Of a stretch of 64,000 nt of DNA, positions 34,695 to 36,316 are shown piece by piece (position 1 is the first letter of the stretch; every line of letters begins with the position of its first letter). The stretch is from assembly GCF_053078305.1 (NCBI RefSeq), contig NZ_CP166879.1; one strand, 5' to 3'. A model generated the notes under the pieces. The model was not told the DNA's origin. It made no database searches and saw only the letters and a list, made by a program, of their open reading frames with translations. Both the position numbers and the translations under genes were made by a program.

Positions 34695-36038
34695 TTAAAT
34701 ATGATGAATAATCACTTTGTTGCCCCCCTCGCTTTTCGCTTCGCGTAAGGCTTTATCTGCTTCCGTCATGACAAGCGAGATATTACGCGTGTCACCCGTT
34801 GAAAAAACCGTGCCAATACTGATGGTCATTTGTTCAGGAACATCATATCTGTTACTAAAGCCGGTCAGGAGTTCGACATTTTTACGCATACGTTCCGCAA
34901 TGATTTTTGCCTGGGCACTATTGAGTTCGGTAAATAGCAAGCCAAACACCTCACCCTCCAGTCGCGCTAAAATATCATCGGGGCGGATGCTTTGCTGGAT
35001 AATATCGACAATTGAAACCAGCACTTTATCACCCACACGATGTCCCCATTGGGCATTGATGCGTTTGAACTGATTAATATCAACCAGCATGACACAGAAG
35101 TCCTTAACAACAGGTCGCGACAATAATGACTCTACGCTGTTGAAAAAGTAGCGCCGATTGTAAATATTGGTCAGCACATCATGAACTGCCAGTTTGCTGG
35201 AGAGTTGCAGCTCCTGAAAAATGTTATAAATCAGAAAAGACACAACAAACAGTTTACTGGAGACTTCAATCCCGCGACTGATATACCAGATGGTATAATT
35301 ATACTCATCCAGAGTCAGTAGAAGTAAGTTGCAGCATAGCGATGCCAGACATAATAATGCTATTAACGGCCATAGTTCGCTGGCTAATCGTGTACGCATG
35401 ATAATAAAGAACAGTAAAAATGCCCACAGACAAACCAATATTTTTGTATAGTTGATTCCCCAGGTCGCAGTATGGTTGTCCGGACAGTAATCGACGACAT
35501 ACAAAGAATAGTCAGCGTTATAACTGCTCAGATTGTGTGCCAGAAGGGGAAAAACTAAAAAAGGAATCAGCGCCAGCAACAGAATGCCAGTTTTTTTCTT
35601 ATTGTTGTCAAGGATGTTGTCTTTTCCATAACAAAAGAGCGCCAGCGAGGTTAAACAAATAAAACTGAGTTGGCGGAAAATATAGAAAATAGAAACATCA
35701 TTCGACTTTGTCTGGATCAGTGTACTGCCGTTAATTGGTTTATGGATAATTACAATGGTTTCAACTAAATAGATAAGGCCACTTAAAAATGCAAGGCTTA
35801 AAATGAGTGTTGGTAAAATTTGTTTGTTAGTGAAATATTTCATTAACATGAAAAGAAAAATGACGGCGTTAAGGAAAAACAAAGCCACAACAACCATCAG
35901 GTAATTCATCTGTGGGATGAGTTTTACATTTGTGTTTTCGTTATATAAGGTAGTAATGCAAAATAAAATTAACGTCAGCAATAAACTGAAAATAAAAAAG
36001 CTTTGAGCTTTTAATTTTTGTGTACCCATAGAAACCAT
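34695..36038 (-). CDS. cdgI: Degenerate GGDEF-domain membrane protein CdgI (YeaI)
   Basis: 447 aa from first in-frame ATG; polytopic N-terminal domain; motif reads RLEGEVF instead of GGDEF; frame stays open upstream to 36284 with no ATG/GTG/TTG. Confidence 0.8.
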   Translation of the reverse strand: MVSMGTQKLKAQSFFIFSLLLTLILFCITTLYNENTNVKLIPQMNYLMVVVALFFLNAVIFLFMLMKYFTNKQILPTLILSLAFLSGLIYLVETIVIIHKPINGSTLIQTKSNDVSIFYIFRQLSFICLTSLALFCYGKDNILDNNKKKTGILLLALIPFLVFPLLAHNLSSYNADYSLYVVDYCPDNHTATWGINYTKILVCLWAFLLFFIIMRTRLASELWPLIALLCLASLCCNLLLLTLDEYNYTIWYISRGIEVSSKLFVVSFLIYNIFQELQLSSKLAVHDVLTNIYNRRYFFNSVESLLSRPVVKDFCVMLVDINQFKRINAQWGHRVGDKVLVSIVDIIQQSIRPDDILARLEGEVFGLLFTELNSAQAKIIAERMRKNVELLTGFSNRYDVPEQMTISIGTVFSTGDTRNISLVMTEADKALREAKSEGGNKVIIHHI

Positions 36039-36316
36039 AAAAAGGAGAGCAATGTGAGTGCTGGATTTTATTGATGGCAGAGATATATAGTTTTGACCAA
36101 GATCAATTTTCGTTAACGATAAAAAATATTTAAAGAATAACCCCAGGGAAATACGTGTTGACAGAATAATTTTTCCGAATGATTGTTTTCTGGAACTAAA
36201 TTGTGTAAAGGTTATGCTGTCATATTTAAAGCGATTGTAAGCTAATGTATGTAATAAATGAGATAATTTACAGTGAGCTAAAAATCAGCCAGGCGATAAT
36301 GACCCGGCTGATAGTT

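Follow-up and report, generated by a model that had tools for sequence, protein, structure and literature searches.

The annotated N-terminal extension of Escherichia coli CdgI is probably regulatory DNA, and the ATT at its annotated start a lineage polymorphism

The cdgI (yeaI) gene on the minus strand of the window, a 64,000-nucleotide stretch of contig NZ_CP166879.1 (RefSeq assembly GCF_053078305.1), carries the allele of the O55:H7/O157:H7 lineage, in which ATT replaces the ATG annotated as the start codon in E. coli K-12. The next 44 codons are probably 5′ regulatory DNA with an FNR-type promoter, in which case the conserved CdgI protein has 444–447 amino acids and the ATT is not needed as a start codon. 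This protein most likely begins at ATG 36029 or ATG 36038 (called ATG2 and ATG1, respectively), and the seemingly missing start codon is an annotation problem combined with a lineage polymorphism. CdgI is E. coli's one stand-alone degenerate GGDEF protein, and the conditions of its expression have explicitly been called unknown (PMC5635695). The outcome is a local correction of modest interest that involves no new mechanism.

Table 1. Features of the cdgI region in the window
Feature	Position	Strand	Details
GGDEF domain	34716..35189	-	PF00990, E = 9.2e-45; profile 1-161/161; residues 328-485 of the 491-aa frame
MASE4 membrane sensor domain	35214..35909	-	PF17158, E = 1.2e-48; profile 5-237/239; residues 88-319 of the 491-aa frame
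Conserved cdgI CDS from ATG2	34695..36029	-	ATG2 at 36029-36027; 444 aa (MGTQKLKAQ...); TAA at 34697-34695
ATG1, first canonical in-frame start of the window	36036..36038	-	447 aa (MVSMGTQ...); alternative or co-used start
Candidate -10 hexamer TAAAAT of FNR-type promoter P2	36065..36070	-	CATCAATA(A/G)AAT invariant in 10 orthologues
FNR box	36093..36106	-	TTGATcttgGTCAA in the window, TTGATcctgGTCAA in K-12; located in the annotated extension
44-codon extension, treated as CDS in the annotation of K-12 and in many RefSeq records	36039..36170	-	no canonical start here; evolves as constrained non-coding DNA
ATT aligned with the annotated ATG of K-12	36168..36170	-	G to T at 36168
GGA, the sole GGA between 36320 and 36000	36174..36176	-	weak Shine-Dalgarno-like element for the K-12 ATG; possible CsrA motif
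Promoter-like TTTACA-16-AACAAT	36182..36209	-	consensus scan only; would start RNA about 5 nt upstream of where K-12 has its ATG
RstA box TACAttagctTACA and candidate promoter P1	36236..36249	-	match to TACA-N6-TACA; overlaps TACAAT hexamer (36239-36234)
Intrinsic terminator of the upstream gene yeaH: hairpin, then T-run	36284..36312	-	11-pair stem, 6 G-C pairs

The start-codon allele

Translation of the open reading frame from ATG1 (34695–36038) gives a product of 447 amino acids, and the frame remains open for 82 further codons in the 5′ direction until a stop at 36287–36285. None of these codons is ATG, GTG or TTG, and ATG1 is thus the sole canonical start that lies in frame 5′ of ATG2. A frame check thereby confirmed what a sequence-only reading of the window had described. 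That reading put the reference product at about 490 amino acids, and proposed either that such a product needs a non-canonical start in this strain (36170–36162 reads ATT ATT CTG) or that the sequence carries a start-codon change. This length is right, as RefSeq gives K-12 cdgI 491 amino acids with a start equivalent to window position 36170.

Comparison with the reference DNA supports the second of these proposals. The K-12 gene (YeaI; UniProt P76236 / b1785) lies in the same yeaG-yeaH-cdgI-dgcJ context with 99.0% DNA identity, and its ATG aligns exactly with the first ATT of the window, an outcome that the reading itself had named as speaking against a non-canonical start. The two sequences also differ 11 codons upstream of this position, where the in-frame TAA of K-12 is CAA in the window (36203–36201); the length of the 82-codon open stretch is thus partly accidental. 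Overall, the sequence-only reading is partly supported, in that its start-codon alternative is correct.

Among 5,426 complete E. coli genomes, 319 have the ATT allele, most of them O157:H7 or O55:H7, and 5,070 (93%) carry ATG. Because the same position is ATG in three other GTDB Escherichia lineages and TTG in E. whittamii, the ATT allele is derived. RefSeq calls for one and the same ATT allele disagree. The PGAP annotation pipeline gives 491-amino-acid products starting at ATT in several O157, O55 and A30 records (WP_112843856.1, WP_024165563.1 and WP_024174698.1), and uses ATG1 to give 447 amino acids in O157:H7 strain PV15-279 (WP_000254252.1). This shorter call on an identical allele suggests that the ATT starts were propagated by homology.

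The AUU start codons of infC and pcnB are conserved and regulatory. If the window allele worked in the same manner, the 491-amino-acid protein would be initiated at ATT 36170 or at CTG 36164, a reading that fits the PGAP products, the acceptance of ATT as a near-cognate start by translation table 11 and the weak GGA that precedes the ATT. However, AUU supports only about 1–2% of the initiation seen with AUG, even in optimised contexts, and infC and pcnB are the only E. coli genes with confirmed AUU starts (bioRxiv 063800). The likeness of cdgI to these two genes consists of an ATT at the annotated start that RefSeq uses as such in some genomes. Whereas the AUU starts of infC and pcnB have been confirmed experimentally (bioRxiv 063800), the cdgI ATT arose recently from ATG in one lineage, within sequence that is free of coding constraint, and is followed by canonical ATGs 44 and 47 codons further on. 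Conservation of AUU among relatives, which defines the infC/pcnB class, is not seen for cdgI, whose counterparts in related genomes show ATG or TTG at this position or lack a start there. Together with the contradictory PGAP call, these observations make genuine non-canonical initiation extremely improbable. Provided that the 44 codons are regulatory, the ATT ‘starts’ in hundreds of O157:H7 RefSeq records would be annotation artefacts to be excluded from surveys of non-AUG initiation.

Substitution pattern of the extension

The 44 codons lack the purifying selection and third-position excess that are characteristic of coding sequence. Ratios of dN/dS are 0.3–1.6 in the extension versus 0.03–0.10 in the gene body, and pN is 0.02–0.15 versus 0.000–0.059. 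Variable sites in the extension show no codon periodicity (10, 11 and 14 at codon positions 1, 2 and 3), whereas those in the body are concentrated at the third position (47, 24 and 174, the last being 174 of 245), and the two regions differ with Fisher P values of 6e-5 to 2e-3. Between the window and K-12, the four differences in the extension (the ATG/ATT start, Q3L, M9L and P24L) all change the amino acid, and the body has eight synonymous and no nonsynonymous changes. The intact body is weak proof that ATT strains retain function, because the ATT lineage is young and most of its differences from K-12 are older than it.

An open frame might itself be taken as a sign of coding. All 16 sequences from E. 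coli and close clades that were compared in frame retain the upstream ATG (TTG in E. whittamii) together with the open frame. However, the probability of encountering no stop by chance is about 0.18 given 35 substitutions, which is not significant either way, and we rejected the argument that the open frame must be coding. Two 1-nt frame-breaking indels in one sequence (L007, strain E69) were likewise set aside, since both are homopolymer-length differences and may be sequencing errors.

The predicted structure of the 491-amino-acid form is also of low confidence in this region, with AlphaFold2 pLDDT values below 50 for residues 1–49, although this is partly an artefact because only three or four alignment rows cover the extension. 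The sequence-only reading had described hydrophobic segments upstream of ATG1. The extension proved no more than moderately hydrophobic: in a Kyte–Doolittle scan (19-residue mean, threshold 1.6), the maximum in the extension is 1.46, and a transmembrane helix there was therefore rejected, whereas seven segments of the body exceed the threshold.

Orthologue anatomy

Across 10 syntenic orthologues, ATG2 is the only start that is both present and in frame in every sequence, and the TATG at 36030–36027 does not vary among them. The Escherichia strains examined share ATG1 with the 77% orthologue; E. albertii has GTG in its place, one orthologue (L008) has it out of frame and the 62% Citrobacter-like orthologue lacks it. 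Moreover, E. albertii, strain SCPM, the 77% orthologue and the 62% Citrobacter-like orthologue, which all share the yeaH-cdgI-dgcJ synteny, have an in-frame stop 13–16 codons 5′ of ATG2 and no start upstream. Full-length homologues outside the E. coli cluster are 443–448 amino acids long and align from residue 43–48 of the 491-amino-acid form.

Conservation within the extension lies elsewhere: of its 30 columns that are invariant across the 10 orthologues, 21 belong to the half-sites of the FNR box or to the −10 block. The premise of the sequence-only reading, that a real 491-amino-acid product has to be accounted for by an ATT or CTG start, does not hold up against these results, because the extension is without protein-level constraint, is missing or frame-broken in syntenic orthologues and holds a conserved promoter-like unit that is bound by FNR in vivo. 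We propose that codon 36170 would not start the conserved protein and that the 44 codons after it are regulatory DNA that may be open in frame by chance. Translation in this strain would then proceed from ATG1 or ATG2, making initiation at ATT or CTG unnecessary, and the ATT change would be neutral or nearly so, at most costing an optional, unconstrained N-terminal tail of 44 residues. If the first 44 codons are promoter DNA, the 491-amino-acid reference in UniProt and RefSeq is probably 44–47 residues too long, which would affect constructs, tags, topology models and structure predictions. A Shine–Dalgarno sequence was found at neither ATG1 nor ATG2 in E. coli, and the 5′ end of the mRNA around them is predicted to be unstructured (z = −0.06).

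A candidate FNR-dependent promoter

The FNR box of the window matches 9 of the 10 bases of the consensus TTGAT-N4-ATCAA. Its half-sites are invariant in 10 orthologues, and a perfect TTGATcgcaATCAA is present in the 62% orthologue. The one difference between the window and K-12 boxes, which corresponds to P24L in the frame of the extension, sits in the non-critical N4 spacer. The distance from the centre of the box to the candidate −10 hexamer is 28–29 nt in 12 of 12 sequences examined, with 22 bp between the site and the hexamer, a spacing that exactly suits class II geometry. The motif alone proves nothing and was rejected as stand-alone evidence, because the consensus with at most one mismatch occurs six times in the window versus 3.4 expected.

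FNR occupies this site in K-12. The ChIP-seq and ChIP-chip summit at 1868480 coincides with the centre of the box (Myers 2013 Tables S5, S6), and a predicted FNR site, TTGATCCTGGTCAA, with a score of 15.15 was filed in the same study as ‘Within yeaI’ (Myers 2013). Where the start of a directly FNR-activated promoter is known, the site lies at −41.5 ± 4 in 19 of 23 cases (Myers 2013). From the sequence, the start of the candidate promoter, called P2, is expected at about 36058, which would place the centre of the box at −41.5 in the geometry of a class II promoter. The FNR site and the hexamer may thus form a class II FNR-activated promoter, whose transcript would begin 20 nt before ATG1 and 29 nt before ATG2.

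This arrangement shares with established class II FNR promoters (dmsA, narG, nirB, ynjE and others) the TTGAT-N4-(G/A)TCAA motif, in vivo FNR occupancy and the 22-bp spacing to a TAAAAT −10 hexamer, from which a centre at −41.5 is predicted. It differs from them in that its start is a predicted one, in that its site lies within an annotated coding sequence and in its expression: the FNR peak at yeaI is accompanied by no FNR- or O2-dependent change in expression in K-12 in glucose minimal medium (Myers 2013 Table S9), and yeaI is absent from the lists of O2-responsive genes (Myers 2013). If the model is correct, the FNR site ‘within yeaI’ becomes a candidate promoter, and a candidate inducing condition for CdgI would be anaerobiosis combined either with relief from RstA, H-NS or CsrA or with induction by AppY.

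Upstream elements and initiation at the K-12 ATG

Further upstream, RstA binds a yeaI promoter fragment in electrophoretic mobility shift assays, and yeaI is reported to be up-regulated in an rstA mutant of EHEC O157 (PMC6824119). A sigma-70 ChIP-seq peak at 1868329 (Myers 2013) corresponds to roughly position 36250 of the window, near the RstA box and some 190 nt 5′ of the start predicted for P2, which implies that a promoter further upstream gives a transcript including the K-12 ATG. The promoter-like TTTACA-16-AACAAT has a −35 hexamer that is conserved within Escherichia, and was not relied on because it is weak and such a match (one found) is expected 2.1 times by chance. The GGA lies 4 nt before the upstream ATG position, and CdgI has been reported to be repressed by CsrA (PMC5635695).

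Initiation data are available for the K-12 gene. INRI-seq, which is retapamulin profiling of synthetic mRNAs in vitro, detects initiation at the annotated ATG in 5 of 5 replicates (RPF 80–147) and lists no alternative yeaI site, though the construct includes ATG1 and ATG2. The Ribo-RET value for yeaI reproduced in the INRI-seq data is 0, because the gene is not expressed. The TRAINSPOTTER N-terminomics supplements contain no cdgI entry.

Since the K-12 ATG initiates in vitro, ATG strains may also make a 491-amino-acid isoform, and could add the tail whenever they transcribe the gene from a promoter further upstream. Taken as a full alternative, ATG strains would have two isoforms, with RstA-controlled P1 mRNA yielding 491 amino acids and P2 mRNA yielding 444–447, and O157/O55 strains would have lost the long form. 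The in vitro initiation, the sigma-70 peak and RstA box, the retention of ATG (or TTG) with an open frame in E. coli and close lineages, and the GGA with CsrA repression all favour two isoforms. However, the tail has no protein-level constraint, the open frame is statistically unsurprising and no in vivo detection of the long form is on record, the Ribo-RET value being 0 and the tagged protein undetectable. We consider two isoforms unlikely. The tail would then be evolutionarily young and unconstrained, and the practical outcome for the window would be the same, but the K-12 annotation would not be wrong.

A distinctly unlikely extension of this idea is that E. coli sensu stricto gained the N-terminal extension de novo when an in-frame ATG was captured in the promoter region of the gene itself. 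Two isoforms would then arise from an RstA/CsrA-controlled upstream promoter (491 amino acids) and an FNR-dependent internal promoter (444–447 amino acids), with the long form switched off in O157:H7 and O55:H7. If true, this would be a natural case in which an N-terminal extension was born and lost again, and in which promoter DNA also served as coding sequence.

The same initiation data could be read in the opposite sense, with the K-12 ATG as the sole physiological start, so that the ATT cuts CdgI to about 1–2% and the gene is becoming a pseudogene. Most E. coli genomes carry ATG, the annotated start is the only one detected by INRI-seq in vitro, the low efficiency of AUU relative to AUG would account for such a loss, and IS elements often interrupt the locus in other strains. 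Yet syntenic orthologues with intact conserved bodies have no upstream start at all, the extension evolves neutrally and the body of the ATT strains is intact, the last being a weak point for the reason given above. In addition, yeaI is regulated by RstA in EHEC O157, where the gene has been implicated, by correlation only, in the level of c-di-GMP and in biofilm formation (PMC6824119). Loss of function in the ATT lineage is therefore very unlikely, and regulatory DNA upstream of a protein starting at ATG1 or ATG2 is our preferred explanation of the 44 codons.

Protein domains and relatives

The conserved protein would comprise about eight transmembrane helices, the MASE4 domain and then a catalytically degenerate GGDEF domain with an I-site capable of binding c-di-GMP. 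The MASE4 domain lies entirely downstream of both ATG1 and ATG2. The GGDEF assignment is further supported by a TIGR00254 match of 123 bits versus a cut-off of 37.4. As the sequence-only reading had noted, the motif is degenerate: the frame reads LARLEGEVF, with the A-site EGEVF at 34958–34944 departing from the GG(D/E)EF of active diguanylate cyclases by a glutamate in place of the first glycine and by valine as the fourth residue. CdgI has been described as catalytically degenerate, and a tagged version of the protein could not be detected under laboratory conditions (PMC5635695).

Active MASE4-GGDEF homologues, which are 38–62% identical, have the same architecture and a length of 443–448 amino acids that corresponds to the short form of CdgI; they differ in keeping GGEEF where CdgI has EGEVF, and none carries the 44-residue extension. 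This set likely includes the E. coli paralogues DgcT (YcdT) and DgcX in addition to the Citrobacter-like orthologues, and DgcT, DgcX and CdgI are treated as one family in the literature.

The A-site also varies among syntenic Escherichia orthologues, which have EGEEF, DGEVF, EGDVF, EGNVF or EGKRF, with GGEEF in the Citrobacter-like orthologues. The I-site, in contrast to the varying A-site, is intact: its RPDD (34985–34974, residues 396–399) places the RxxD motif five residues before the A-site, and neither R396 nor D399 varies across 19 homologues. Both sites are identical in K-12 CdgI, and c-di-GMP binding by the purified CdgI domain has been published (PMC5635695).

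The cdgI start codon differs between strains

The cdgI gene (yeaI) lies on the minus strand of the window with yeaH (36317–37600) on one side and dgcJ on the other, and in RefSeq 5,424 of the 5,426 complete E. coli genomes carry a cdgI annotation at the homologous stretch. The window does not come from K-12, to which it is 99.0% identical, and its cdgI 5′ region is 100% identical to that of the O55:H7 strain USDA5905. The sequence-only reading described a 447-aa frame running from ATG 36038 to 34695, with 82 further codons open upstream that offer no canonical start. An ORF listing and a frame scan confirm this description, and ATG 36038 is the sole canonical in-frame start ahead of the second ATG (36029–36027). 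Positions 36201–36203 read CAA in the window and TAA in K-12, where the frame closes 11 codons upstream of the K-12 ATG, and therefore the 82-codon open stretch is present in some strains only.

RefSeq assigns K-12 CdgI 491 aa, with a start equivalent to window position 36170 that adds 44 codons (36039–36170, the extension) ahead of ATG 36038. K-12 has ATG ATT CAG at this position, whereas 36170–36162 in the window read ATT ATT CTG, exactly as first noticed. Of the two explanations offered for the missing start, the one by which this strain's start codon differs from that of the reference is correct and a non-canonical start did not hold, leaving the original interpretation partly supported. 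Allele counts across 5,426 genomes, made using 32-nt queries and every 28-mer seed spanning the variable base, gave 5,070 genomes with ATG and 319 with ATT, nearly all of the latter being O157:H7 or O55:H7, with A30 among the few exceptions. The ATT allele is derived, because three lineages split from E. coli by GTDB (MOD1-EC7003, E1V33 and E69) carry ATG and E. whittamii carries TTG.

RefSeq handles the ATT allele inconsistently, calling 491 aa from ATT in A30, O157:H7 H6437 and O55:H7 USDA5905, but 447 aa from ATG 36038 in O157:H7 PV15-279. A literature search, which missed some key cdgI papers, found no description of this allele or proposal to re-annotate it. Unlike infC and pcnB, which have conserved AUU starts, cdgI does not belong to that class. 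Initiation at AUU reaches roughly 1–2% of the AUG level (bioRxiv 063800), such that the product in the window strain is most likely the short protein and the question of a 44-residue tail is of little import there.

Evidence against conserved coding in the extension

Substitutions, orthologues, homologue lengths and protein features, four independent lines of evidence, all indicate that the extension is not conserved as coding sequence. Substitutions were compared among 16 in-frame sequences, comprising 13 from E. coli (the window and 12 RefSeq genomes) together with MOD1-EC7003, E1V33 and E. whittamii. The body of the gene (codons 48–491) has dN/dS values of 0.03–0.10, with 174 of 245 variable sites at codon position 3, whereas the extension has values of 0.3–1.6 and variable sites spread 10/11/14 over the three codon positions (Fisher tests, p = 6e-5 to 2e-3). 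Nonsynonymous divergence in the extension exceeds that of the body by a factor of 3 to more than 10, and ‘synonymous’ divergence is no higher than in the body. Between the window and K-12, all four differences in the extension alter the amino acid (M1I, Q3L, M9L and P24L) and all eight in the body are silent.

Orthologues from E. albertii, strain SCPM-O-B-8794, a metagenomic sequence (77% identical) and a Citrobacter-like sequence (62% identical) all lie between yeaH and dgcJ. In each of the four, an in-frame stop lies 13–16 codons ahead of the second ATG and no start occurs upstream. The second ATG alone is shared in frame by all ten orthologues; ATG 36038 reads GTG in E. albertii, lies outside the frame in SCPM and is missing from the Citrobacter-like sequence. 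Furthermore, full-length homologues outside the E. coli cluster, including active GGEEF relatives, are all 443–448 aa and align from residues 43–48 of the 491-aa form. In a hydropathy scan, the extension stays below the hydrophobicity of a transmembrane segment. AlphaFold2 pLDDT is below 50 for residues 1–49 and 62–94 elsewhere, although the value for the extension is weak evidence because the alignment there is thin.

A candidate FNR-type promoter lies within the extension

Divergence in the extension is below that of synonymous sites in the body, indicating constraint that does not act codon-wise. Thirty columns within 36039–36170 are invariant in all ten orthologues, and 21 of these fall in two blocks, an FNR box and a block carrying a −10-like hexamer.

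Coordinates of features in and upstream of cdgI
Feature	Position	Strand	Remark
RstA box (TACA-N6-TACA; TACAttagctTACA)	36249–36236	−	motif match; overlaps TACAAT hexamer
FNR consensus TTGATC....TCAA	36106–36093	−	invariant block, ten orthologues
CATCAATA(A/G)AAT block	36076–36065	−	invariant in ten orthologues; contains −10-like TAAAAT (36070–36065)
I-site RxxD	34974–34985	−	R396 and D399 invariant in 19/19 homologues
A-site	34944–34958	−	degenerate

The most distant orthologue matches the FNR consensus perfectly (TTGATcgcaATCAA), and the P24L difference falls in the N4 spacer of the box. All 12 sequences examined keep a constant spacing between the box centre and the −10. With 22 bp between box and hexamer, the box is centred at −41.5 relative to a predicted start near 36058, which is the class II geometry seen in most FNR-activated promoters (Myers 2013). 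In K-12, the FNR ChIP-seq and ChIP-chip summit (1868480) sits at the centre of this box, and the site TTGATCCTGGTCAA is listed as ‘Within yeaI’ with a PatSer score of 15.15 (Myers et al. 2013). Expression of yeaI showed no FNR- or O2-dependent change (Myers et al. 2013, Table S9). A transcript from the predicted start of this promoter (P2) would be unable to encode the extension, and its leader, predicted to be unstructured, would run 20 nt to ATG 36038 or 29 nt to ATG 36029.

We consider it fairly probable that conserved CdgI begins at ATG 36029 or 36038, that the open frame ahead of it is regulatory DNA containing a class II-type promoter bound by FNR and that ATT is a near-neutral lineage marker. 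This is a familiar kind of case, wherein a longest-ORF start call took in the gene's own regulatory region; here the over-long call is exposed by a natural ATG/ATT polymorphism. Its value lies in annotation and in the search for a condition that induces CdgI; there is no new mechanism and the interest is modest.

An upstream promoter may permit a long form

The K-12 sigma-70 peak at 1868329, which rises from 85 to 172 anaerobically (Myers et al. 2013), maps to about window position 36250, away from predicted P2. Beneath it lies the RstA box, which overlaps the TACAAT hexamer and is conserved within Escherichia. In EHEC, RstA binds a yeaI promoter fragment in EMSA, a result that the box matches, and yeaI is among the genes reported up in an rstA mutant of EHEC O157 (PMC6824119), which is an ATT-allele background. 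On these grounds, an upstream promoter (P1) probably exists, with a transcript spanning the K-12 ATG. The annotated K-12 ATG initiates in all five replicates of INRI-seq (in vitro with retapamulin, on synthetic mRNAs with a 30-nt leader and 153 nt of ORF), which lists no alternative initiation site for yeaI. Together, these data suggest that ATG-carrying strains may be able to add the 44-residue tail. In vivo, CdgI was undetectable (PMC5635695) and the Ribo-RET signal for yeaI is zero.

The block at 36171–36183, ATCATTCGG(A)AAAA, adjoins the K-12 ATG and holds the only GGA of the intergenic region. It is kept in the 77% and 62% orthologues, which lack a start codon downstream of it, and is not conserved in E. 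albertii; CsrA or a transcription factor might bind it.

Two published data sets converge on a separate site at about 35280–35330, within the MASE4-coding region and roughly 850–890 nt into annotated cdgI. A sigma-70 ChIP-seq peak ‘within yeaI’ (1869297) increases from 15.6 under aerobic to 407.9 under anaerobic conditions (Myers 2013, Table S2), and an AppY ChIP-seq summit lies at 1871229, with cdgI RNA increasing by 5.1 log2 on AppY overexpression. Only weak promoter-like matches occur there, and AppY-induced ‘cdgI’ RNA may arise from this internal site.

A-site drift and other features of the locus

Pfam assigns CdgI a MASE4 domain (E = 1e-48) and, after it, a GGDEF domain (E = 9e-45). Translation gives the A-site as RLEGEVF, in agreement with the initial reading; this degenerate A-site, an intact I-site and c-di-GMP binding are already published (PMC5635695). 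Syntenic Escherichia orthologues vary among EGEVF, EGEEF, DGEVF, EGDVF, EGNVF and EGKRF, and Citrobacter-like orthologues (57–62%) keep GGEEF. Judged from these alignments, no constraint acts on the degenerate A-site across syntenic orthologues. Its drift beside an invariant I-site fits a loss of catalysis with c-di-GMP binding retained, a small addition to the published picture.

Adjoining the cdgI stop codon, dgcJ (33024–34694) forms a GTG-initiated ORF of 556 aa, compared with 1,491 bp (496 aa) in RefSeq, making it the second gene at this locus whose longest ORF exceeds the accepted gene. The locus is also a repeated target of insertion sequences across E. coli strains. IS5 truncates the 3′ end of cdgI in P27_L1_05.20, IS200C lies between yeaH and cdgI in MS10858, and in strain 1444 yeaH is followed by an IS1 transposase and then rnd in the usual place of cdgI–dgcJ. 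A published K-12 lineage likewise carries IS1 in dgcJ plus a cdgI–dgcJ′ deletion.
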